35,643 nucleotides of DNA, taken from positions 1 to 35,643 of IMG/VR virus record IMGVR_UViG_3300031867_000270. One strand, given 5' to 3'. This document shows, one piece after another, positions 3,453 through 32,357 of this stretch. Position 1 is the stretch's first letter. Every line of letters begins with the position of its first letter. Source of the DNA: a virus. The notes beneath the pieces were generated by a model, which searched no databases, was not told the origin of the DNA, and worked only from the letters and a program-made list of their open reading frames with translations. A program made the position numbers and the translations under genes.

Positions 3453-3953
3453 ATGTCTGATATAAGAAAAATAGATAGAACAGAATGGGTAGACTTTTTA
3501 AATGTAAGTAATACAAGCACACCAGATTGGGCAATAATTGGAATTGGTATCACAGATAAATCAACAGACTACAATGCAGAAGTTTCAGAAGAAAAATGGA
3601 TAATCCATAAAAATGCAAATAAAACAGTTGATAGTTATGCATTACAATCTGGTGTAGAACAAACTGCTTATAAAGGTGACCCAGTATTTGAATTTGTAGA
3701 TAACATTAGATATAGATTATTAACTGGTTCAGATGCAGAAACAGATTTATTAGAAATAGATAAATATAGTGCATCTTCTAGTGATACACCTGAATACAGA
3801 GCTAGAAAATGGAGAGTTGCAATTGAAATAAGCTCTAATGCTGGAGATACAGCAAAAGTTAATTACAATATTCATTATATAGGAGACCCATCATTTGGAA
3901 AAGTAACATTTTCAGATGGTACACCAACATTTACAGAAGTTGCATCATTATAA
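3453..3953 (+). CDS. Major tail protein
   Basis: 166 aa, strong RBS GAAGGAA, last gene before the chaperone/tape-measure block. Confidence 0.6.
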   Translation: MSDIRKIDRTEWVDFLNVSNTSTPDWAIIGIGITDKSTDYNAEVSEEKWIIHKNANKTVDSYALQSGVEQTAYKGDPVFEFVDNIRYRLLTGSDAETDLLEIDKYSASSSDTPEYRARKWRVAIEISSNAGDTAKVNYNIHYIGDPSFGKVTFSDGTPTFTEVASL

Positions 3954-4004
3954 TAAAAGCCAGAAAAAGAAGATAATTATTTGGATTTAAAAAAATTCAA
4001 ACCA

Positions 4005-4184
4005 TTAATTACCTTCTTTTTCTTTCAATTCATTTACTATAGTACGAGTAGCCTCTACAACAAAGGCACTAAAAGTAGATTCTTTCCCTCGAATCAAATT
4101 TTCAATATCATCAATTAAATCATTAGGAAATCTAATAGAACGCTGAGTCGTAGATGGAATTACTGGTATTTTAAAATTACTCAT
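4005..4184 (-). CDS. Ribbon-helix-helix (Arc/CopG-like) DNA-binding protein
   Basis: ATG 4184 lies 8 nt after GGAG (the track ORF opens with GTG 4193). RSIRFPNDLIDDIENLI..FSAFVVEATRTIV fits a beta-strand/helix/helix RHH pattern. The gene is antisense to the tail operon. Confidence 0.65.
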   Translation of the reverse strand: MSNFKIPVIPSTTQRSIRFPNDLIDDIENLIRGKESTFSAFVVEATRTIVNELKEKEGN

Positions 4185-4231
4185 ATTAATCACTCCGTTA
4201 TTATTTATTAATTAATATTATAAATTACAAA

Positions 4232-4274
4232 TGGGTTACAGTATGTATTTTAATTAAATCCCAAGTGGGTTACA
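4232..4274. promoter_or_regulatory. Two direct 9-bp repeats TGGGTTACA upstream of the RHH gene (candidate RHH operator)
   Basis: Copies at 4232-4240 and 4266-4274, 34 bp apart, in the divergent intergenic region. Confidence 0.35.
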
Positions 4275-4364
4275 TTAAAAGAAAAATATATAAACTATTA
4301 TATATAAAGAATAGTGAAGAAAATGTCGAAAAAGAGAAAATTTTTTATATAAAGTTATTTTTGT

Positions 4365-4393
4365 TGACAAGTTTCGACAAATTTTTTATTTTT
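4365..4393 (+). promoter_or_regulatory. Moron promoter with the TTTCGACAAATT motif in its spacer
   Basis: TTGACA 4365-4370, then TATTTT about 16 nt downstream (weak -10; TATGTT at 4396-4401 is an alternative). The exact 12-mer is at 4372-4383. Confidence 0.5.
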
Positions 4394-4482
4394 TTTATGT
4401 TATTCTAAAAATACATACAAAAGACCACGATAGTGGTCGGAAAATATTATTTAATTTGTAAATAATAAAAGGAGGAATAGTA

Positions 4483-4986
4483 ATGAAAAAAGAATATGAA
4501 TTTTCGGATTTTAGTAATGGAGGGAAAACTAAAGTTATAATTGAAGATGGTAGATTAACTATTTCTAGGCCAGGAATCTTGTCAAAGTTCTCACATGGAT
4601 TTACAGGTGAAAAAACCATATTAATAAAAAATATTTCAGCTGTACAATTTAAGCCTGTTGGATTTGCTAGAGGATATTTGCAATTTGTGCTTGCAGGAAC
4701 TAGAGAAGCTAAAAGTGGAATAGTAATGGGAGCAAAAGATGAAAATATTATTTATTTTGCTTCTGGATTTAACAATGAAAAGATAAACAAAAAAGCAAGA
4801 GAGATAAAAGAATACATAGAGAACTATAATACAAAATTATCTCAAAATAATACTACGAATATATATAATAGTTCTGATAAATATGATAAATTGATAAAGA
4901 TAAAGAAATTGCTAGATAATGGTATTTTATCGAATGAAGAATATGAAAAAGAAAAAAAGAAAATATTACAAGAAGAGGTCCAATAG
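4483..4986 (+). CDS. PH-like (DUF4429-type) domain protein with C-terminal SHOCT domain
   Basis: RBS AAGGAGG. The N-terminal pattern GRLTI...GEKTILIKNISAVQF..GYLQFVLAG resembles bacterial PH/DUF4429. The C-terminus DKLIKIKKLLDNGILSNEEYEKEKKKIL matches the SHOCT signature. Confidence 0.6.
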   Translation: MKKEYEFSDFSNGGKTKVIIEDGRLTISRPGILSKFSHGFTGEKTILIKNISAVQFKPVGFARGYLQFVLAGTREAKSGIVMGAKDENIIYFASGFNNEKINKKAREIKEYIENYNTKLSQNNTTNIYNSSDKYDKLIKIKKLLDNGILSNEEYEKEKKKILQEEVQ

Positions 4987-5003
4987 GAACCTCTTTTATT
5001 TTG
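4974..5003 (+). terminator. Intrinsic terminator of the moron
   Basis: AGAGGTCC-AATA-GGAACCTCT (one bulge) followed by TTTTATTTT; overlaps the stop codon. Confidence 0.6.
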
Positions 5004-5020
5004 TATAAAGGAGAAATGAC

Positions 5021-5524
5021 ATGGATAATGCTATAAGATTAAAAAAAAGAAATGATATTTTTAGATTAGGTATCATAGATGAAAATGATAAAGTTGTAAT
5101 AGATGAGAATGGAAATGAGGTATATCTAGAATTTGATTTAGCGGATATTGAATTGCCGTTGAAATACAATAAATGTATAAATTTAATGAATCAAGCAAGA
5201 AAGAATTTAAAAGCACAATTAATTATAATAGATAAGAAACAAGACCATAAAGGAAAACAATTATTAAGTTCAAATGAAGAAGCAAAAACAAAAGCAGTAA
5301 AACAGTTTTATAAAGAAATGGAAGAAGCTATGGATTTATTTCTAGGTAAAGGTGGAACAAGAAAATACCTAAATGGAAGAAATCCATATTGGGAAATGTG
5401 GGATGATATAAGTGAAGCTTTAGAGCCACATTTAGAAAAGATGAAATTAACAGTCTCAGATATGACTGATAGAATAAAAGAAAAATACAAAGTTACAGAT
5501 AGTGATGTGTTGACAAATGACTAA
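5021..5524 (+). CDS. Tail assembly chaperone (Gp14-like)
   Basis: Position two genes upstream of the tape measure; 167 aa. Confidence 0.5.
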   Translation: MDNAIRLKKRNDIFRLGIIDENDKVVIDENGNEVYLEFDLADIELPLKYNKCINLMNQARKNLKAQLIIIDKKQDHKGKQLLSSNEEAKTKAVKQFYKEMEEAMDLFLGKGGTRKYLNGRNPYWEMWDDISEALEPHLEKMKLTVSDMTDRIKEKYKVTDSDVLTND

Positions 5525-6080
5525 TTATCCAGAATTTGCACAAGTGAATAATAATAAATATAAAATTAATACCGATTTCAAAGTAGCCTTAAAGTGCAAC
5601 GAAATAGCAGAAGATGATATACCAGATGAAGAAAGAGCTTTTGCAATTATTTATTTGCTATTTGGAGAAAAAGGACTTGATAATAGTGAAGATTGGAAAG
5701 AGTTATTGCAAATTGCACTTAAGTACTTAAATTGTGGGAAAGAAATAAAAGAAGAAAAAAGTGAAGAAGCAGATATGTCTATTAACCAAGATTGGGGATA
5801 TATACAAGCTTCTTTTTTTAGTGATTATAACATTGATTTATCAAAAGAGCAGATGCACTGGTGGCTATTTTATGATTTATTATGTGGATTAACTGAAAAA
5901 TGTGTTTTAAATAGAGTTAGATTTGTAAGAAATTTTGATATTAGTCAAATAAAAGATAACAAAGAAAGACAAAAATGGATAGAGCAAAAAGAACAAGTAG
6001 CTTTAAAAAAGAAAAAAGTAAAAACATTAGAAGAAGAAAGATTAGACGAACTCTTCGAAAAACAATTGAGAGGAGGTTAA
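5517..6080 (+). CDS. Tail assembly protein (phage Gp15-like)
   Basis: Overlaps the previous gene by 8 nt and lies directly upstream of the tape measure. The N-terminus NNNKYKINTDFKVALKC resembles A118-type Gp15. Confidence 0.5.
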   Translation: MTNYPEFAQVNNNKYKINTDFKVALKCNEIAEDDIPDEERAFAIIYLLFGEKGLDNSEDWKELLQIALKYLNCGKEIKEEKSEEADMSINQDWGYIQASFFSDYNIDLSKEQMHWWLFYDLLCGLTEKCVLNRVRFVRNFDISQIKDNKERQKWIEQKEQVALKKKKVKTLEEERLDELFEKQLRGG

Positions 6081-6084
6081 GATT

Positions 6085-8166
6085 TTGAGTGAATATAATG
6101 GATACCTAAAAATAAAAACCAAATTAGATAATAAAGAAATTGATAAAGATGTTGCAGAACTGGAAAATAAAATAAATAAGTTGCATATGGATAACGAAAT
6201 AAAGAATCAAGAATCCTCATCTTTGCAAGCAGAAATAAACAATTATGAACAATTAGCACAAAAAGCAGAAGAATATAGACAACAAATAAAAAGATTAAAA
6301 GCAGATAGACAAAATATGCTAGGTAATAATCCAAGTTTAGCAGTATCAAGTAGCCCTGAGTATGCTAAATTAAACAGTCAATTAGATGTGACAAAACAAA
6401 AATATGCTCAAATAACTAATGAAGTTGATAAGCAAGCTTCAAAAATAGATAAAGTATACATCAAATTAGCAAAAATCAAAGCAAAACAAAGTGAAAATAA
6501 TGCAAAAATATCTGAATATAAAAGAAAAATAGAATCAATAAATACAAGCCATATTCAAAATTCGCTTAATTCGGTTGGAGCAAATATCCAAAAACAAATA
6601 GGAAGCATTGGAAAAATGGCTTTAGCTGTAATAGGAGTAAGAACAGCATGGGGATTAGTAAGAAGTGCAATAAGTATGGTATCTCAATATAATAGTCAAG
6701 TTTCAGCAGATTTTGAATATATGAGATATTGTATAGCAAGTTTGTTAGCTCCTGCAGTTCAAGGATTAATAAAGTTATTATATACCGTATTGAGCTATGT
6801 TAATGCTATTGCAAATGCTTGGTTTGGAATTAATTTATTTGGGAATGCAAGTGTAAAGAACTTTAAAAAAATGCAAAGTAGTGCAGGTAGTACAGCAAAA
6901 TCTGCGAAGGAAATTAAAAAATCTTTACAAGGTTTTGATGAAATGAATATTTTACAAGATAACTCAGATAGTTCGTCAGGTGGAGGCGGAGGAGCTTCAA
7001 CACCAAGTATGGATTTAAGTGGAATACAAGGAGAAGTACCTAAATGGATGAAATGGATTATAGACAATAAAGATTTATTATTATCTATAATAGCTGGTAT
7101 ACTTGCTGGAATAATTGCTCTTAAACTAGGATTAGGCGGAATAAAAGCATTAGGTATAGGAATTTTAGTAGCAGGAGTTGTTTATGCTATACAGGCGTTA
7201 ATAGCCTACTTAAAAGACCCAAGTTGGATGAATTTCGGGAAAATTGTATCAGGAATAGGAGTCGCTCTACTTGGACTAGGTTTGATAATAGGCAATCTAC
7301 CACTTGCAGTAACTGGAGCAGTTGTTGCTATATTAGGGATAGTAATTGCAAATTGGGAGAAAATAAAAGCGTTTTTACAAGGCTGTATAGATTGGCTGAC
7401 AGGAAAAAGTGAATGGATACATAGTAAATTTGGAGATTTTATAGGAAGTTTATATGATGGATTTGTAAATATATTGCAAGGAGCTTTAGCTTATTTAGAT
7501 ACAGTTTTTACATCGATAAAAGGAATTTTTGATGGGTTAATTAAATTTATAAAAGGTGTATTTACAGGAGATTGGAAACTAGCGTTTGAAGGGCTAAAAG
7601 ATATAGTATTTAACATTTTTAATATAGTATGGGCGAGAATAAAAATGGCAATTAACACAATAACAAATTTAATAACAGCTACGTTAAATGCTTTAATATC
7701 AATATTTAGCAAAGTAGGTCAAACAATAATAAATCTATTTAATAATATTGCTACAAAAGTGCCAGAAACGATATCATCAAAATTTAAGTCAGTGATAAAT
7801 GCAGTATTAAGTGCAGTTCAAGCTATATTAAATACACCAATAAAAGCAATAAATGGATTGATTGGCGCAGTAAATCAATTACCTGGAGTAAATATAGGAA
7901 AACTTAATACATTTAGTTTTCCAAGATTGGCAAAAGGTGGAGTTATAACACAGCCTACACAAGCAATAATAGGTGAAGCAGGTAAAGAAGCGGTAGTCCC
8001 ATTAGAGAATAATTTGGAATGGTTAGATATATTGGCTGATAAATTAGCAAATAAAATTGGAGCTGGCGGAGGTTCATATATTATAAATATGGATAGTAGA
8101 GCAATTCAAAGAGGTATAGCAAAAAGACAAAATGAATTAGCATTTGCAACAAACGGAGGAAAATAA
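6085..8166 (+). CDS. Tail tape measure protein
   Basis: 693 aa, TTG start after GAGGAGG. Long coiled-coil N-terminus, Gly-rich and hydrophobic central segments, canonical position. Confidence 0.85.
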   Translation: MSEYNGYLKIKTKLDNKEIDKDVAELENKINKLHMDNEIKNQESSSLQAEINNYEQLAQKAEEYRQQIKRLKADRQNMLGNNPSLAVSSSPEYAKLNSQLDVTKQKYAQITNEVDKQASKIDKVYIKLAKIKAKQSENNAKISEYKRKIESINTSHIQNSLNSVGANIQKQIGSIGKMALAVIGVRTAWGLVRSAISMVSQYNSQVSADFEYMRYCIASLLAPAVQGLIKLLYTVLSYVNAIANAWFGINLFGNASVKNFKKMQSSAGSTAKSAKEIKKSLQGFDEMNILQDNSDSSSGGGGGASTPSMDLSGIQGEVPKWMKWIIDNKDLLLSIIAGILAGIIALKLGLGGIKALGIGILVAGVVYAIQALIAYLKDPSWMNFGKIVSGIGVALLGLGLIIGNLPLAVTGAVVAILGIVIANWEKIKAFLQGCIDWLTGKSEWIHSKFGDFIGSLYDGFVNILQGALAYLDTVFTSIKGIFDGLIKFIKGVFTGDWKLAFEGLKDIVFNIFNIVWARIKMAINTITNLITATLNALISIFSKVGQTIINLFNNIATKVPETISSKFKSVINAVLSAVQAILNTPIKAINGLIGAVNQLPGVNIGKLNTFSFPRLAKGGVITQPTQAIIGEAGKEAVVPLENNLEWLDILADKLANKIGAGGGSYIINMDSRAIQRGIAKRQNELAFATNGGK

Positions 8167-14443: not shown

Positions 14444-14682
14444 TGAACGAATTTTTAAGAAACTTTATAATGACAACAATCTTCAAAATGATAGACAATA
14501 ACATACCAGAATGGCAAGTAAGAGAATACGCATTAGGCTGGTATACAAAAGGAATATTAACAGAAGAAGATTTAAAATCAATAGATGAAAAATACAAAGA
14601 AGAGCCAGTAGAAGAAACTGAACAGCTTGATGAAGAAGTGAACAGCACTGAACAGACTAATGATGAAAGTGAGGAAAAATAA
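14443..14682 (+). CDS. XkdX-like small phage protein
   Basis: 79 aa. GWYTKGILTEEDLKSI resembles the XkdX family; sits between the fibre and lysis genes. Confidence 0.45.
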   Translation: MNEFLRNFIMTTIFKMIDNNIPEWQVREYALGWYTKGILTEEDLKSIDEKYKEEPVEETEQLDEEVNSTEQTNDESEEK

Positions 14683-15002
14683 TGGAACATATAACAATAG
14701 GTCAAATAACAAATGCAATAACATTAATAATGGTAATAGTAGGTGCATTTGCTACAATATATAAATTTGTGCACGATGCATTTTTCGACAAATTAAAATG
14801 TTTAGAAGGTAGGCTTGTGAAATTAGAAGAAGAAACAGAAAGACAAGGAAATGACATAAAGGATAGCAAAGAAGAAAGACTATTATTAATGCAAGGGTTA
14901 TTAGCATGTTTGAAAGGATTAAAAGAACAAGGTTGTAATGGACCTGTAACTCAAGGAATTATAGATATAGAAGAATACATTACACAGAAATCTCATAAAT
15001 AG
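14682..15002 (+). CDS. Holin-like protein (single N-terminal TM plus coiled coil, BhlA/UviB- or XhlA-like architecture)
   Basis: TM segment ITNAITLIMVIVGAFATIY followed by a charged coiled coil; immediately upstream of the lysin. Confidence 0.5.
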   Translation: MEHITIGQITNAITLIMVIVGAFATIYKFVHDAFFDKLKCLEGRLVKLEEETERQGNDIKDSKEERLLLMQGLLACLKGLKEQGCNGPVTQGIIDIEEYITQKSHK

Positions 15003-16410: not shown

Positions 16411-16445
16411 TTTCGACAAATTCTGCAAAAATAATGTGCTATAAT
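16411..16445 (+). promoter_or_regulatory. TTTCGACAAATT motif followed by an extended -10 (TGcTATAAT)
   Basis: 12-mer at 16411-16422; TG 16437-16438; TATAAT 16440-16445. Located 12 nt after the endolysin stop. Confidence 0.45.
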
Positions 16446-16495
16446 AAACATGGATTTTATAATTAGAAAGATTATATGAAAACACATCTTTCATT

Positions 16496-16532
16496 GAGGT
16501 AGGGTAGATTCAATCTATTCTACCTCTTTTTT
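16496..16532 (+). terminator. Strong intrinsic terminator (end of the late operon and/or of a short transcript)
   Basis: GAGGTAG...CTACCTC outer stem with an inner TAGAT-TCA-ATCTA stem, followed by TTTTTT. Confidence 0.8.
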
Positions 16533-16563
16533 GCTTTTTATAAAAAAATATGTTATAATAGTG

Positions 16564-16660: not shown

Positions 16661-16686
16661 AAAAAAGAATAAGAGCCGAAGCCCTT
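16661..16686 (-). terminator. Intrinsic terminator of the small membrane-protein gene
   Basis: On the minus strand: AAGGGC-UUCG-GCUCUU followed by ATTCTTTTTT; overlaps the stop codon. Confidence 0.65.
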
Positions 16687-16864
16687 ATTCATGATAAGTT
16701 GTTTTGTTGGAGTCCGTAGCCTGGACTTCAATTTTTTTATGATTATCTTGGTATTTTATATATGTATTATAACCCAGACTTGCTAAAAAACATAAAACAA
16801 TACCAACTATTAAAAAAATCAAAGCAATACCTAAGTATCGAACTGCTATCACTTCTGCAGTCAT
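16685..16864 (-). CDS. Small single-pass membrane protein (59 aa), hypothetical
   Basis: ATG 16864 lies 8 nt after AAGGAGG (the track ORF opens with GTG 16873). MTAEVIAVRYLGIALIFLIVGIVLCFLASLGY, then a polar tail. Confidence 0.65.
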   Translation of the reverse strand: MTAEVIAVRYLGIALIFLIVGIVLCFLASLGYNTYIKYQDNHKKIEVQATDSNKTTYHE

Positions 16865-16914
16865 ATACTGCACCTCCTTCTTTTGTATTTACATCCAACT
16901 GCCTTAAAGAAAGC

Positions 16915-16965
16915 TGGATGCATTATCTAATAGTTAAGATGATTAATTACTAATTAATGCATCCA
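16915..16965. repeat. Perfect 10-bp inverted repeat in the 5' leader of the membrane-protein gene
   Basis: TGGATGCATT 16915-16924 pairs with AATGCATCCA 16956-16965 (31-nt loop). Confidence 0.6.
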
Positions 16966-16993
16966 ACTTCGAAGGAGTAACAACTTAGCAAAT

Positions 16994-17022
16994 AATATAT
17001 CAAAAATAATACTCATTGTCAA
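16994..17022 (-). promoter_or_regulatory. Promoter of the membrane-protein gene
   Basis: Minus strand TTGACA (17022-17017), 17-nt spacer, TATATT (16999-16994). A degenerate motif copy, TTTCGACAGATTT, lies just upstream (17044-17032). Confidence 0.55.
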
Positions 17023-17089
17023 ATAACTTATAAATCTGTCGAAAACGCCAAAAACCAAGCCATATAACTTGTTTCGCCCAAAATAAAAA

Positions 17090-17126
17090 GCCCTTAAAAT
17101 CGATTCTCACGCGTCGATTTTTGGGC
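17090..17126 (-). terminator. Intrinsic terminator of the XRE/Spo0E-like gene
   Basis: GCCC-TT-AAAATCGA ... TCGATTTT-T-GGGC long stem; the minus strand is followed by TTTTTATTTT. Confidence 0.7.
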
Positions 17127-17461
17127 TATTTTTCTTGATTTCTGTACTCATCGCTAATATTCAAAACTAGGTCTAACAACTGACTAATTTCCATAGTTTC
17201 TTTTGCATTTATACCATATTTATCTATACATTCATGCATCTTATTTCTCAAATCTTCAATATCAAGTTTAGTATAAAATAAATCTTTAACATTCACGTTT
17301 AAAGCATCTGCTATTTTAATTAATGATTGTAGAGTAGGATTTATTCTTCTGTTATGTTCTAAATCATATAAATAAGCACGAGATATACCAGTCATTTCAC
17401 TTAAAGCTTTAATAGATAAATTTGCTTTTTCTCTAAATTCTTTTATTACAAAAATATACAT
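17126..17461 (-). CDS. SinR/XRE-family HTH regulator with C-terminal Spo0E-like motif (111 aa)
   Basis: ATG 17461 after AGAGGTG (the longer track ORF runs through the promoter). HTH: SIKALSEMTGISRAYLYDLEHNRRINPTLQSLIKIADALNVNV. C-terminus: IEDLRNKMHECIDKYGINAKETMEISQLLDLVLNI. Confidence 0.7.
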   Translation of the reverse strand: MYIFVIKEFREKANLSIKALSEMTGISRAYLYDLEHNRRINPTLQSLIKIADALNVNVKDLFYTKLDIEDLRNKMHECIDKYGINAKETMEISQLLDLVLNISDEYRNQEK

Positions 17462-17520
17462 AACCACACCTCTGAAATAGTATCTGTATATTTTATAATA
17501 AATATTCAAACTTGAACAGA

Positions 17521-17586
17521 TGACGCTGGTAGCGTCACTTTTGTCGAACGATTTTTCTTGCATTTCGACAAATTCCGTATTACAAT
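17521..17586. promoter_or_regulatory. Divergent control region: inverted repeats plus a TTGCAT-17-TACAAT promoter carrying the 12-mer
   Basis: TGACGCT-ggt-AGCGTCA at 17521-17537. TTTGTCGAA 17540-17548 pairs with TTCGACAAA 17564-17572. -35 at 17558-17563, -10 at 17581-17586. Confidence 0.55.
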
Positions 17587-17622
17587 TTTTATAAATCAAA
17601 GAGAGAATATTTGGAGGAAGAA

Positions 17623-17793
17623 ATGGAAGAATTATATGTAATAAGTAAAGAAGATTTTGAAAAGTTTTTTAAAAAAGAAAGTATTGTTGACAAGAAAAAA
17701 GTTTATGAAAAATATAAAAAACATACAAACAATAATTTGGAAAAATTATCACATTATTATCACACAAGTTTGAAATTATATAAAAATAATTAA
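17623..17793 (+). CDS. Hypothetical small protein (56 aa)
   Basis: ATG 17623 lies 5 nt after GGAGG. Lys-rich; its 3' end contains copy 1 of the 27-bp repeat. Confidence 0.4.
   Translation: MEELYVISKEDFEKFFKKESIVDKKKVYEKYKKHTNNNLEKLSHYYHTSLKLYKNN
17745..17771. repeat. 27-bp direct repeat, copy 1 (ATTATCACATTATTATCACACAAGTTT)
   Basis: Identical to 17949-17975; contains two ATTATCACA sub-repeats. Confidence 0.9.
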
Positions 17794-17948: not shown

Positions 17949-17975
17949 ATTATCACATTATTATCACACAAGTTT
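17949..17975. repeat. 27-bp direct repeat, copy 2, abutting the integrase stop codon
   Basis: Identical to 17745-17771. Confidence 0.9.
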
Positions 17976-19110
17976 AGAATAAAGAGTTTAATTTATCAAT
18001 TGCAATATCTTTTTGACTTTTTGAGCTATGCATGTAAATTTGTGTAATGCTAATTGCAGTATGTCCCATTAATTCAGCAACAGTTTGAATATCTATTCCA
18101 TTTTTTAATAACATAGAACCATATGTATGTCTTATTGCGTGAAATTTTCTATGAGGTAGATCACATGCTTTTAAAATTTTAGTCCATTCTGTAGAAACAT
18201 TTTTACCTTTAAGAGGATTATTATTTTCATCGTGGAATAATAGTCCATTTTTCTTTTTAACTTTTGCAAGTTCATCAACTAAATTACTAGGGAGTGGAAC
18301 AGTTCTGTATGAATTTTGAGTTTTAGGAACCTGAAAAACGGTTTCAATATGTTTATGAGTATCATCATCATATACATAAACTTCTTTTACACTTCTATCT
18401 ACAGTTGCTTCTTTTTTATCTAGATCAACGAATTTCCAATCAATAGCAAGTAGTTCTCCCATTCTAAAACCTGTAGCAATATCAAACAAAAATAGAAGAT
18501 AAAATTGAATATTATTTGTATCTAGTAAATATTTTTTTATAATAGATATTTCTTCTTCTGATAGAATTTCAACTTTTCTTCTCTTATTCTTTATAATATC
18601 TGATTTATTTCCTTTTATATTGACATTTAAGCAAGGATTTTTTAATATATATCCGTTTATAATACACCAATTAAAAAAGGTTTTTAGAGTTGAATTTAGA
18701 GTCTTTAATTGTGAATATGAATAATCTTTTTTATATAAATCATTATAATAGTTTTGCAACTGCATTAAATTGAAGCTATGTACTTTATTTCCAGCAATAG
18801 AAGAATCTCTAACATAATTTCTATATATACCCTCGTAACGCTGGAAAGTAGATGGTTTTATTTTAGAAGAATTGTGTAAATAATCAAATAACCAGGCATG
18901 CATTAAGTCATTAATAGTAATGTTTTCAAAATCATTAACTAAACCATATTTTAATTTATTGATATATTCATCAGCTTTTTCAATAGCTTCTCTTTCACAT
19001 TCTCCATAAAAAGTTTTTCTTATTCTAGTTCCATCAGCTTTAAAACCGACAGTTCTGGTAACACGAAAATATTTCTTTCCATTCATTTCAAAGTTGGTCT
19101 TTTTAGCCAT
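17974..19110 (-). CDS. int: Tyrosine integrase
   Basis: 378 aa. The C-terminal catalytic pattern HAIRHTYGSMLL...GHTAISITQIYMH gives the R-H-R-Y residues. N-terminal SAM-like domain. Confidence 0.92.
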   Translation of the reverse strand: MAKKTNFEMNGKKYFRVTRTVGFKADGTRIRKTFYGECEREAIEKADEYINKLKYGLVNDFENITINDLMHAWLFDYLHNSSKIKPSTFQRYEGIYRNYVRDSSIAGNKVHSFNLMQLQNYYNDLYKKDYSYSQLKTLNSTLKTFFNWCIINGYILKNPCLNVNIKGNKSDIIKNKRRKVEILSEEEISIIKKYLLDTNNIQFYLLFLFDIATGFRMGELLAIDWKFVDLDKKEATVDRSVKEVYVYDDDTHKHIETVFQVPKTQNSYRTVPLPSNLVDELAKVKKKNGLLFHDENNNPLKGKNVSTEWTKILKACDLPHRKFHAIRHTYGSMLLKNGIDIQTVAELMGHTAISITQIYMHSSKSQKDIAIDKLNSLF

Positions 19111-19128: not shown

Positions 19129-19154
19129 AAGATAAGTATATTTCAACTTATCTT
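19129..19154 (-). terminator. Hairpin between the repressor gene and int
   Basis: AAGATAAGT-8 nt-ACTTATCTT, overlapping the repressor stop. Confidence 0.4.
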
Positions 19155-19795
19155 TAGTTTATTTCAAATTTTCCTATGTATTTACCTAATATCTTAATAG
19201 GTGTCTTTTTATCATATATTTGCCTTTTAAAACTCTCATCTGTACTCATAGGCTCTAGGAATACGAAATCTCCTTGTTTTGCAAATCTTTTTAATGTAGC
19301 ATCATAACCATTTACTAATACAACGGCTATATCTCCATCATCAACAATATCTTGCTTTCTAATAAGAGCATAAGCACCATTTCTAATTACTTTATTCATT
19401 GATTCGCCGTCTACTTTTAAGAAGAAACACTCTTCTGGATTTATAATTCCCATTAATGCAGGGTCAATAGGCAAGTATCCATTTAAACATTCTTCTGCCC
19501 AGTTAGGTTGCCCTGCTGATATTTTGCCGTATACAGGTGTCATAAATAACTTATTTGAAATGTTTTCATTCTTGTTATCTTTATCCTCAACTAAATCACT
19601 TTTTAATATATTAAAATAATTTGCTAATAATTCTATCTTATCTATTCTAGGATAATATAATGCATTACACCAACTTGAAACAGTAGAATAAGGTACATTT
19701 GTAATTTTAGCTATATCATTTCTAGTTTTGTTGTATTTTTCCATATAGTATTTTAAATTTTTAGAGAAAATTTCTTTATTTCCTAAATCACTCAT
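19154..19795 (-). CDS. CI-like repressor (XRE HTH plus LexA/S24 autopeptidase domain)
   Basis: ATG 19795 after GGAGGA. HTH: RNDIAKITNVPYSTVSSWCN. Ala-Gly site in KISAGQP. DGESM ... LKRF gives the Ser/Lys dyad. Confidence 0.88.
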   Translation of the reverse strand: MSDLGNKEIFSKNLKYYMEKYNKTRNDIAKITNVPYSTVSSWCNALYYPRIDKIELLANYFNILKSDLVEDKDNKNENISNKLFMTPVYGKISAGQPNWAEECLNGYLPIDPALMGIINPEECFFLKVDGESMNKVIRNGAYALIRKQDIVDDGDIAVVLVNGYDATLKRFAKQGDFVFLEPMSTDESFKRQIYDKKTPIKILGKYIGKFEIN

Positions 19796-19887
19796 TTTAT
19801 AAATCCTCCATGCACTAATATTAACACATTTTTTTAAAAAATGCAAAAAAAATTATAGAAAAACTAAAATTTTTTTGAAAAAAGTAT

Positions 19888-31066: not shown

Positions 31067-32357
31067 ATGGACTGATAAACAAAGGGAATATTTGCAAAAA
31101 GCCACGCATAGATGGAACTTTAAAATTGGAGCGGTAAGAAGTGGAAAAACATTTCAAGATAAAGAAGATATTATAGCAAGAAGAATAAGACAAAGAAAAG
31201 GATTAGATGGTTTAGTAGTGCTTATTGGGGTAACAGAGGCGACAATTGAGAGAAATGTTTTAAGACCTATGCGAGATAAATTTGGTTCAGAGTTGGTTGG
31301 GAATATATCAAAAAATAAAGTTTGGCTATTTGGAGAAGAATGCTATGCTTTAGGAGCAGAGAAAATAACACAAGTCTCCAAAATACAAGGAGCTAGCTTT
31401 AAATATGTATATGGTGATGAAGTAGCGAAATGGAAAAAGGAAGTATTTGATATGGTAAAATCAAGGCTAGACCAAGATTATAGCTTGTTTGATGGAACTT
31501 GTAACCCAGAACAAAAAAATCATTGGTTAAAAGAGTTTTTAGATAGCGATGCAGATATATATATACAACATTACACAATAGATGATAATACATTTTTAAG
31601 TAAAACATTTATAGAAAATTTAAAAAAAGAATATAAAGGAACAGTACTTTATAATAGATACATATTAGGATTATGGTGTAATGCAGAAGGACTTATATAT
31701 AGAACATTTGCCGATAATCCTAAAAAATACATATGGACTAAAAAGAAAAAAGACAATAATGGAAATGAAACAGAAAAATATGATTTACCACCAGGGTATA
31801 CAATAATAGGAATTGATTATGGAGGCACAAAATCGGGGCAAGCATTTGTAGCTACAAGAATAAGCTATGATTTTACAAAGGTAATAGCTTTAGCAACCGA
31901 AAGACACTTTGGAGATATAGACCCAGATAAGTTAGAAGAATTGGAATTGAATTTCATATTAAAAGTAATGTATAAATATGACTTAACAGTTGATGATATA
32001 TTCCCAGATAATGAGGAAACAGTTCTAATAAGAGGACTAAGAAATGCATGTGAAAGAAAAGGAATATATGCTACAGTAAGAGGTAGTAAAAAAGTTCCTG
32101 TAAATAATAGAATAGATTGTGAACGTACCATAATTGCTTATGGTATTTTTTATTACATAAAAGAGGAATGTGAAACATTAGTTGAAGCACTAGAAAGTGC
32201 TTTATGGAGTGATAAACCAGGAAAAGACAATAAAGATGAAAGACTAGACGACTTTACAACGGATATAGATTCATTAGATGCATTTGAATACACATTCGAA
32301 AGATATATACCACAAATAACAGATGTTGTAGAAATGAGGAGAAAAAATAATGTTTGA
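31059..32357 (+). CDS. terL: Terminase large subunit (PBSX/Terminase_3-like)
   Basis: Walker A GAVRSGKT, Walker B-like YVYGDE, C-terminal nuclease region; 432 aa. Confidence 0.9.
   Translation: MLKWTDKQREYLQKATHRWNFKIGAVRSGKTFQDKEDIIARRIRQRKGLDGLVVLIGVTEATIERNVLRPMRDKFGSELVGNISKNKVWLFGEECYALGAEKITQVSKIQGASFKYVYGDEVAKWKKEVFDMVKSRLDQDYSLFDGTCNPEQKNHWLKEFLDSDADIYIQHYTIDDNTFLSKTFIENLKKEYKGTVLYNRYILGLWCNAEGLIYRTFADNPKKYIWTKKKKDNNGNETEKYDLPPGYTIIGIDYGGTKSGQAFVATRISYDFTKVIALATERHFGDIDPDKLEELELNFILKVMYKYDLTVDDIFPDNEETVLIRGLRNACERKGIYATVRGSKKVPVNNRIDCERTIIAYGIFYYIKEECETLVEALESALWSDKPGKDNKDERLDDFTTDIDSLDAFEYTFERYIPQITDVVEMRRKNNV

Follow-up and report, generated by a model that had tools for sequence, protein, structure and literature searches.

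The question raised by this stretch of viral DNA is why about 1 kb of divergently arranged sequence with its own control signals interrupts the tail genes of a temperate phage. The stretch, which we call the window, comprises all 35,643 nucleotides (nt) of the IMG/VR record IMGVR_UViG_3300031867_000270 and, judging from gene content and order, is a complete-looking, low-GC temperate siphophage genome of 35.6 kb. Between the end of the major tail protein gene at 3953 and the start of a tail assembly chaperone gene at 5021 lies an insert of 1.07 kb, in which a minus-strand gene (4005–4184) for a 59-amino-acid (aa) ribbon-helix-helix (RHH)-like protein of the YlcI/YnfO family diverges from a plus-strand gene (4483–4986) for a 167-aa cargo protein with a PH-like DUF4429 domain and a SHOCT domain. 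The original prediction, a short note made from the sequence alone, had delimited the insert and both open reading frames (ORFs) in the same way and placed a divergent control region of 290 bp between them, close to the 298 bp (4185–4482) that we find. By comparison with related phages, the 1-kb region is best described as a mobile accessory cassette, or moron, that occupies a recombination hot spot; the phage is a temperate siphophage of Clostridia with a low GC content. Beyond this, we lean on balance towards a fuller reading, in which the mobile cassette would be activated in the otherwise silent prophage by phosphorylated Spo0A, the master regulator through which the host enters stationary phase and sporulation, and autoregulated by its RHH protein, and its cargo would protect the host at the membrane.

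The term moron was coined in lambdoid phages, HK97 among them, for an additional transcription unit lying between conserved late genes. We assign the region to this class because related phages differ at this one position, where they carry either nothing or another cargo. The Faecalibacillus locus L007 and phage phiCD38-2 have no extra gene at the junction, which in L007 is a gap of ~100 bp. In other relatives it houses a Zn-ribbon membrane protein (L002), a Zn-ribbon/DUF3862-BLIP protein (L003), a PASTA protein with two Ltp domains (L004), a DUF4352 protein (L006) or a 3.4-kb array that includes a PH/SHOCT gene 48% identical to that of the window (L005). The flanks are readily recognized, with the major tail protein gene (3453–3953, plus strand) matching phrog_3099 (3.9e-40) and, weakly, the 'major tail protein' family phrog_820, in synteny with gp12 of phiCD38-2. 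To the right, the chaperone gene (5021–5524, plus strand) is assigned by synteny, and the Gp15-family gene (5517–6080, plus strand) by Pfam Phage_Gp15 (5.9e-28). Synteny thus upholds the proposal of a self-contained, variable moron over that of a conserved tail component.

The closest PH/SHOCT homologs (79, 74 and 71% identity) lie in the tail module of L008, L010 and L011, with different co-cargo in each. Cargo identity does not track flank identity, as L010 has a PH/SHOCT protein 74% identical and flanks only 31–43% identical to those of the window, and L005 has 48% in the cargo and 46–82% in the flanks, and therefore the cargo has moved between phages. In L010 an island (4437–8052) splits the chaperone gene from the Gp15-family gene and holds the PH/SHOCT gene, two helix-turn-helix genes and a Bro-N/ANT antirepressor-like gene; translational coupling of the two split genes is therefore not required in this lineage. 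The cassette of the window has its own predicted promoter and terminator, as expected of a moron, and lacks the shift in base composition that also marks such elements, with a GC content of 0.21–0.29 in the island and 0.23–0.32 in the flanks.

The minus-strand gene belongs to a family that travels with many cargoes. Its product scores 39.3 bits against NCBIfam YlcI_YnfO_N (NF041551; cut-off 30) and also matches phrog_949. The RHH label given to it earlier holds in the looser sense of RHH-like, as Pfam returned no match for the 59-aa protein, to an RHH family or any other, and the family profile matched the CopG-type RHH structure 9kkd_A only weakly (E 0.036). An AlphaFold2 monomer model (pLDDT 72) has an extended N-terminus followed by helices 21–31 and 38–58 and is compatible with the RHH fold. 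The ORF starts with ATG, with GGAG 8 nt upstream; an alternative GTG at 4193, chosen by the ORF lister, falls inside this Shine-Dalgarno (SD) sequence, and homologs begin with MSNFKIP.

We detected 290 homologs of this protein with 46–91% identity (59–91% among the matches listed), most of them 57–62 aa long. Homologs at 51–85% identity are typically encoded divergently from a variable cargo in other prophages and viral contigs, including a Zn-ribbon/tRNA_anti-like protein between the chaperones and the tape measure gene of another phage (L023/L031), a Zn-ribbon/DUF3862 protein plus bPH_2 (L025), bPH_3+SHOCT (L026), TM2 (L036), and PASTA+Ltp plus Zn-ribbon/TM2 (L040). The L025 and L026 cassettes adjoin a lysin gene whose product is 46% identical to the lysin of the window, and bajarodcaudo virus 4 carries an RHH cassette within its tail module. 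PH/SHOCT genes are also found without this RHH gene, and together with the many cargoes of the RHH gene this indicates modular combination and not a fixed pair, so the two genes are not the dedicated pair that had been proposed. The homologs nearest to the RHH protein of the window (91% identity; L052, 3211–4572, and L054) are encoded co-directionally with their neighbours, outside any divergent cassette, so the family is not limited to the divergent layout; they overlap the end of a gene for a 268-aa Cys-rich repeat protein and precede one for a 121-aa protein with multiple transmembrane (TM) segments, near HNH and SAM-synthetase genes.

The 59-aa RHH protein is probably the cassette's own regulator, and a candidate operator lies close by. 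Two direct copies of TGGGTTACA, at 4232–4240 and 4266–4274 on the plus strand, sit in the leader of the RHH gene between its predicted promoter and its SD sequence, the first nearer the RHH start and the second 34 bp away. Similarity between the two copies runs over 23 nt (83% identity), and a single further exact match to TGGGTTACA lies elsewhere in the window, at 31500. In related cassettes the corresponding part of the RHH leader carries other short repeats, 22–23 nt apart, so that the 34-nt spacing in the window is longer by one helical turn. The RHH protein probably binds the TGGGTTACA repeats as candidate operator halves and limits the expression of its own gene; it possibly limits expression of the cassette as well, the cargo promoter lying more than 100 bp away.

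A second motif links the cassette to other parts of the genome. The original prediction had noticed the 12-mer TTTCGACAAATT within a TTGACA promoter of the control region (4372–4383, plus strand) and described the island as wired to the same operator as accessory genes near the phage attachment site (attP). The sharing is real, because the window holds four exact copies, the others being at 14783, 16411 and 17563, as well as a one-mismatch copy at 17033. The word operator fares less well. The reverse complement of the 12-mer, AATTTGTCGAAA, contains TGTCGAA, which is the experimentally defined 0A box of Bacillus and Clostridioides difficile Spo0A (PMC3485338, PMC2731898); C. difficile has 102 perfect boxes genome-wide, and its Spo0A binds the core (PMC3485338). 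Only the TTCGACA core is conserved across phages, and the shared element is, from its sequence, most likely a box for host Spo0A and not a phage operator.

In the island the core at 4373–4379 forms a perfect box directed towards the cargo gene. An inverted perfect copy, missed in the original prediction, lies at 4324–4330 (plus strand TGTCGAA, minus strand TTCGACA in the direction of the RHH gene), in the −35 region of the predicted RHH promoter. TGTCGAA occurs nine times in the window against 1.29 expected and a maximum of five in 100 shuffles, and six of the nine copies fall in control regions of accessory genes (4324, 4373, 16412, 17037, 17542 and 17564), with none in the CI/Cro region. The motif also follows the cargo among relatives: L002–L006 and L008 each have a perfect box in the spacer from tail gene to cargo, which is the only box in 10–12 kb save for one extra in L003, and the cargo-less L007 has none. 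Across the relatives' sites the 7-bp core alone is invariant, and flanking bases vary. L003 and L051 each have boxes in tandem, separated by 3 bp; L051 is bajarodcaudo virus 4 (PQ006095), where two perfect boxes (3738–3754) lie just 3′ of the RHH gene in the tail-module cassette.

The boxes stand at a fixed distance from −10 elements. Taking TTCGACA as the anchor, we searched for a −10 hexamer downstream, using non-identical cassettes for the RHH side. In all seven RHH-side promoters the −10 lies exactly 21 nt from TTCGACA, and in six it is a perfect TATAAT, as in the window (4297–4302, minus strand); in L051 the promoter likewise reads TTCGACA, 21 nt, TATACT. On the cargo side of the window, an extended −10-like element, TGtTATTCT (4398–4406, plus strand; TATTCT at 4401–4406 with TGT before it), follows the box at exactly 21 nt and offers an alternative, Spo0A-type cargo promoter; L002 has the same element as TATGTTATTaT. 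Among 14 other intergenic boxes a −10 was found at 21, 22 and 23 nt in five, one and three cases, and most other spacings had zero to two of the 14. A hexamer 21 nt from a −10 cannot act as a normal −35. At sigma-A promoters that Spo0A activates, spoIIG and spoIIE among them, the 0A box covers the −35 position and the spacer is over-long, at 21–22 bp. That Bacillus subtilis has these two Spo0A-activated promoters is documented in PMC12090719 and among the references of PMC7643835. A sample of IMG/VR sites of the form TTTCGACA-N21-TATAAT, in which 23 of the 80 sites listed are followed by an SD sequence and an ORF within 60 nt, is suggestive only as regards this reading. In three of the loci (L073, L099 and L114), proteins of ~48 aa start 16–17 nt after the TTTCGACA-N21-TATAAT element; the sole Pfam match of the two that we scanned was Spo0E-like, below threshold (E 0.002–0.006), and such proteins may be phage-encoded Spo0A~P phosphatase-like factors under a Spo0A-type promoter.

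The same boxes could instead serve repression, as in phi29. The cassette would then be on in growing lysogens through sigma-A promoters such as TTGACA-17-TATTTT (4364–4392, plus strand; TTGACA 4364–4369, TATTTT 4387–4392), which matches the consensus at 10 of 12 positions, and would be switched off at sporulation. The box at 4373–4379 does sit inside the spacer of this canonical promoter, the L036, L040 and L032 boxes lie between the likely cargo promoter and the SD sequence, and promoters of phi29 and Nf are repressed via such boxes (PMC2731898). Most of the promoters, however, have no −35 at 17 nt and have the box in its place, 21–23 nt from the −10, as at the clean site at 16412 (TTCGACA, 21 nt, TGcTATAAT) and in all the RHH-side promoters; from promoter rules, such promoters would be weak without an activator. 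We therefore regard Spo0A repression as unlikely, although it deserves to be kept in view.

Somewhat harder to credit is that TTTCGACAAATT is the operator of a phage regulator, for which the XRE-family protein encoded at 17126–17464 would be the candidate, co-regulating all accessory loci. The four exact 12-mers of this genome agree over more than the 7-bp core; the divergent control region of the XRE gene itself contains the motif twice in inverted orientation, as TTTGTCGAA-N15-TTCGACAAA; the island has its own inverted pair (4324 and 4373); and the XRE protein shows similarity to control proteins and to repressors of phages. Yet the core is the very Spo0A box that has been defined by experiment, and it alone stays invariant across relatives as the flanks diverge. 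It is kept in many phages, and no close relative of the XRE protein was found in IMG/VR. Head-to-tail tandem boxes with a 3-bp spacer and a fixed 21 nt to the −10 also fit an activator of the −35 region better than a repressor with a palindromic operator. In Streptococcus phage PH10, whose host has no Spo0A, TGTCGAA occurs as an inverted pair, which was considered as a counter-example to Spo0A control; it lies inside coding sequence and argues neither way.

The 167-aa cargo protein (plus strand; also assigned to phrog_2700) consists of a PH-like DUF4429 domain, a long helix, a low-complexity linker and a SHOCT hairpin. Both domains had been named in the original prediction, and both exceed the Pfam gathering score (DUF4429 30.1 bits, cut-off 25; SHOCT 29.5 bits, cut-off 27). 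In the AlphaFold2 model (pLDDT 81), a seven-stranded PH-type sandwich is followed by helix 98–126, a disordered Asn-rich linker and the helical hairpin that corresponds to SHOCT. The top PDB matches are mostly PH-type folds (probability up to 1.0, E ~1e-2), and phage 'bacterial PH'/SHOCT proteins in BFVD are matched as well. The family has 5,879 cluster representatives. Neither the Pfam scan nor the domain survey of the family gave a catalytic or pore-forming domain for the cargo, and no Ltp or other superinfection-exclusion domain was found in the Pfam scan. SHOCT has been predicted to tether domains to the inner membrane leaflet (PMC11237479), and a role in oligomerisation was tested and found unsupported (PMC3581485); our literature search returned no mention of DUF4429 and no link of SHOCT to superinfection exclusion.

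The interval between repressor and integrase is the classic slot for prophage-expressed exclusion genes, and distant DUF4429(/SHOCT) homologs occupy it in an uncultured prophage (L017–L019), in the Ruminococcus gnavus phage phiRg519T2, in Streptococcus phage PH10 and in many Javan prophages; the paper describing phiRg519T2 gives no expression data for its homolog, gp22. SHOCT genes are also reported in the lysogeny modules of Lactococcus garvieae and Oenococcus phages (PMC5431838, PMC6256464). Ltp, a proven superinfection-exclusion protein (PMC3952083), is an alternative cargo both of the tail-module slot (L004) and of the RHH cassette (L040), where its domain (PF07553) scores 139–146 bits. 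By these analogies, the lysogen-expressed protective role suggested in the original prediction fits the context. Because the neighbouring and interchangeable cargoes point the same way, our best guess is that the cargo is a prophage-expressed protein protecting the host at the membrane, for example by superinfection exclusion or interference with an incoming phage, and we consider this the least certain step of the reading. A PH/SHOCT gene of 59% identity was also found on a bacterial chromosome (L015, 4612–6489), beside a T5orf172/MUG113-domain gene, a 216-aa gene and secA, in what may be a small defence-like island.

We considered and rejected, as very improbable, the idea that the PH/SHOCT protein is a late-expressed tail-assembly or virion accessory factor whose position reflects its function. 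The closest homologs (71–79% identity) all lie at the same tail-module position or between chaperone and Gp15-family gene, an Anoxybacillus phage protein of similar structure carries the annotation of putative tape measure protein, and the L011 gene is tightly packed between its neighbours. Set against this, close relatives whose tail modules are intact (L002, L003, L004, L006 and L007) lack the gene, and in those of them that bear a cargo the slot is taken by unrelated membrane or surface proteins; homologs are also encoded within lysogeny modules and on chromosomal islands that have no tail genes, and the gene has promoter and terminator signals of its own. The least credible proposal, also rejected, is a toxin-antitoxin or abortive-infection pair of RHH antitoxin and PH/SHOCT effector, which is suggested by the frequency of RHH proteins among antitoxins and by two adjacent genes with a shared control region, but those genes are divergent and do not form an operon or a conserved pair, the RHH gene has many unrelated partners and in a different phage region runs in the same direction as its neighbours, PH/SHOCT homologs are found in its absence, and there is neither an enzymatic or pore-forming domain nor a PADLOC match.

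Several observations weigh against the reading of a Spo0A-activated, host-protective cassette. The seven RHH-side promoters are homologous and hence are not independent events; the cargo-side boxes of L036 and L040 have no −10 at 21 nt; and L010 and L011 carry a PH/SHOCT cargo without a perfect box. The cargo promoter can also be read as TTGACA-17-TATTTT with the box in its spacer, which is a repression geometry, and promoter-like matches in this AT-rich region are not above those in shuffled sequence, −10-like hexamers being common. The presence of Spo0A in the host is assumed from relatives in the metagenome-assembled genomes (MAGs) of Clostridia. As to the cargo, its sequence and model show no TM segment, signal peptide or lipobox, unlike known superinfection-exclusion proteins; PADLOC has no defence model for it or for the RHH protein; and long members of the family add only extra PH repeats, Zn-ribbons or N-terminal TM segments, with no informative fusion. 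Finally, none of the RNA runs searched holds the window sequence.

Taking these observations together, we propose that the cassette is an autonomous unit bracketed by two hairpin terminators (3962–4023 and 4971–5005), in which the 298-bp region drives the divergent genes. Each of the two predicted promoters would have a Spo0A box exactly 21 nt upstream of its −10 and no −35 at 17 nt. In a lysogen, with the late operon silent, rising Spo0A~P would bind the two back-to-back boxes and activate the RHH and cargo genes; the RHH protein would then bind the TGGGTTACA repeats and cap its own expression, and the PH/SHOCT protein would go to the inner face of the membrane and protect the cell, most likely against a superinfecting phage. 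During lytic growth, transcription reading through from the tail gene would likewise express the cargo and, being antisense there, would oppose that of the RHH gene; the terminator at 4971–5005 would act as an attenuator that lowers transcription into the chaperone genes.

The right-hand terminator had been called a dedicated one. It is a predicted intrinsic terminator on the plus strand just before the chaperone SD sequence, a stem-loop (4971–4997) with one bulge and with the cargo stop codon in its loop (−13.2 kcal/mol, z-score −3.7), followed by a U-tract, UUAUUUUG. A hairpin with a T-run precedes the chaperone SD sequence in eight of eight cargo-bearing relatives, and the cargo-less L007 has the T-run only. 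The terminator is therefore general to the junction in cargo-bearing relatives, and would also be the attenuator of the lineage, separating the abundant tail-tube protein from the low-copy chaperones. On the left, an AT-rich inverted repeat missed in the original prediction (3962–4023; arms 3962–3979 and 4006–4023, 18 nt, 94% complementary) forms a 62-nt terminator- or attenuator-like hairpin between the stop codon of the tail gene and the 3′ terminus of the RHH gene, whose last codons it overlaps; it folds at −19.9 kcal/mol on the plus strand (z −5.8) and −26.2 kcal/mol on the minus strand (z −6.5). Rfam gave no credible match in the island or the attP-proximal region; the long hairpin was hit by two microRNA models, far below threshold.

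The remaining signals of the control region that had been listed earlier, the direct repeats, the TTGACA promoter with its motif and the palindrome, are all present at the positions given, and the cargo ORF has AGGAGG 7 nt upstream. The palindrome GACCACGATAGTGGTC (4423–4438), with 6-bp arms around GATA, lies in the 5′ leader of the cargo gene, where it forms an mRNA stem-loop (−10.3 kcal/mol, z −4.9) and, read on the minus strand, is followed by a U-run. It has no second copy in the window, none in relatives, and no match to a known operator consensus. It might stabilise the 5′ end as a stem-loop, serve as a binding site for a protein, or terminate an antisense RNA on the minus strand. On that strand a weak candidate promoter, TTGACA-16-AATAGT (4585 to 4558), together with the palindrome and U-run, could yield an antisense RNA of ~130 nt (4408–4585) over the cargo SD sequence and start.

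Further boxes lie at accessory genes elsewhere in the window. Directly after the lysin stop lies an element at 16412–16445 (plus strand), made up of a box with TGcTATAAT at 21 nt; a hairpin and T-run follow ~80 nt beyond (16412–16535), and the product may be a small RNA, without a match in Rfam, or a 9-codon ORF (16450–16479), in either case controlled in the same way. The boxes at 17037, 17542 and 17564 (17037–17570) lie in the control regions of attP-proximal accessory genes. One of these (16685–17044, minus strand) encodes a single-TM protein of 62 (or 59) aa behind a structured leader of ~110 nt, from a promoter reading TTGACA-17-TATATT, with the one-mismatch 12-mer and its perfect 0A core just upstream; a small membrane toxin, a holin-like protein and an exclusion protein are all conceivable identities for its product. 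Another stretch (17126–17793) has the XRE-family regulator gene, which probably starts at 17464, divergent from a 60-aa ORF (17611–17793), with the perfect boxes at 17542 and 17564 inverted to each other in the shared control region. The exact TTTCGACAAATT copy at 14783–14794 lies in the lysis region, within the coding sequence of ORF 14682–15002 with no −10 at 21 nt. As the attP-proximal control regions carry the same boxes as the island, the accessory loci may form one Spo0A-dependent regulon.

The rest of the genome follows a conventional order, with head and tail genes from 1 to ~14.4 kb, then lysis genes, a tyrosine integrase gene (17974–19110, minus strand) and a LexA-like CI repressor gene (19154–19846, minus strand), followed by replication genes and then terminase and portal. 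Megablast and blastn returned no DNA-level match to the window among isolated phages. Its relatives are recognizable at the protein level only and are prophages in MAGs of uncultured Clostridia and, more distantly, the C. difficile phiCD38-2 group; its sole exact occurrence is in a bovine gut DNA metagenome.

Compared with known systems, the cassette itself is of a familiar kind, a moron or lysogenic-conversion element, and the portable design of an RHH gene with Spo0A-box promoters, which recurs at several accessory loci and in many related phages, appears to be undescribed. It shares with morons its variable presence at one site between essential late genes, its own promoter and terminator signals, and a cargo dispensable for the virion; it differs from them in lacking a compositional shift, in bringing a divergent regulator and in having predicted promoters that depend on a developmental regulator of the host. 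The Ltp-based exclusion of Streptococcus thermophilus phage TP-J34 (PMC3952083) is paralleled by Ltp proteins in the same slot (L004) and in an RHH cassette (L040) and by the expected logic of lysogen protection, whereas the cargo of the window has no Ltp domain, lipobox or TM segment and is predicted to be cytoplasmic, and the Ltp gene of TP-J34 lies in the lysogeny module.

Spo0A boxes are known from the Bacillus phages phi29 and Nf, with tandem 3-bp spacing (PMC2731898), and have been noted in SPO1 (PMC12991052). Like these phages, the window and its relatives have perfect TGTCGAA boxes at promoters, sometimes in tandem 3 bp apart, which would tie phage transcription to sporulation. By contrast, phi29, Nf and SPO1 are virulent, and Spo0A represses their early promoters and replication, whereas the phage of the window is temperate and its boxes avoid the lysis-lysogeny switch and stand in an activator-type geometry at accessory-gene promoters. 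With spoIIG and spoIIE the predicted promoters have in common an 0A box over the −35, an over-long distance to the −10 and often an extended −10; their predicted targets are phage accessory genes and not sporulation genes, and they are recognized here from sequence.

The RHH gene and the cargo likewise have known counterparts. The RHH protein, above the curated cut-off of NF041551, resembles YlcI and YnfO of the Escherichia coli prophages DLP12 and Qin in being a small prophage-encoded protein, and the clostridial members differ in forming a tight subfamily (~57–61 aa) that is usually encoded divergently from a cargo. Bacterial PH/SHOCT proteins (PMC3581485, PMC11237479) and the phiRg519T2 homolog have the same domain pair and a prophage accessory position; the PH10 homolog, next to the integrase gene, has the DUF4429 part only and is so named in its record. 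Unlike the phiRg519T2 and PH10 copies, the PH/SHOCT gene of the window is part of the tail module and has a control region of its own.

Tentatively, and with clearly less confidence than for the cassette of the window, we suggest that clostridial phages share a portable cassette family with Spo0A-box promoters (21 nt), many of them with an RHH gene, which would deploy host-protection genes (Ltp, TM2, DUF4352 and PH/SHOCT) at stationary phase or sporulation. PH/SHOCT proteins would then be a new cytoplasmic, membrane-proximal class of exclusion or anti-phage proteins, guarding the sporulating cell and the prophage entrapped in it. The Spo0A link has so far been documented only for virulent Bacillus phages, via repression; if our reading is true, prophages of gut Clostridia would couple lysogenic-conversion genes to the master switch of sporulation. 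It would also supply a sequence rule for finding lysogen-expressed genes in phages of uncultured Firmicutes (TTCGACA, 21 nt, −10, often with a divergent gene for an RHH protein of 60 aa) and a first functional handle on the DUF4429/SHOCT family, with its more than 5,800 cluster representatives, and on the YlcI/YnfO family, and the interchangeable cargo of the slot would be a ready list of candidate superinfection-exclusion proteins.

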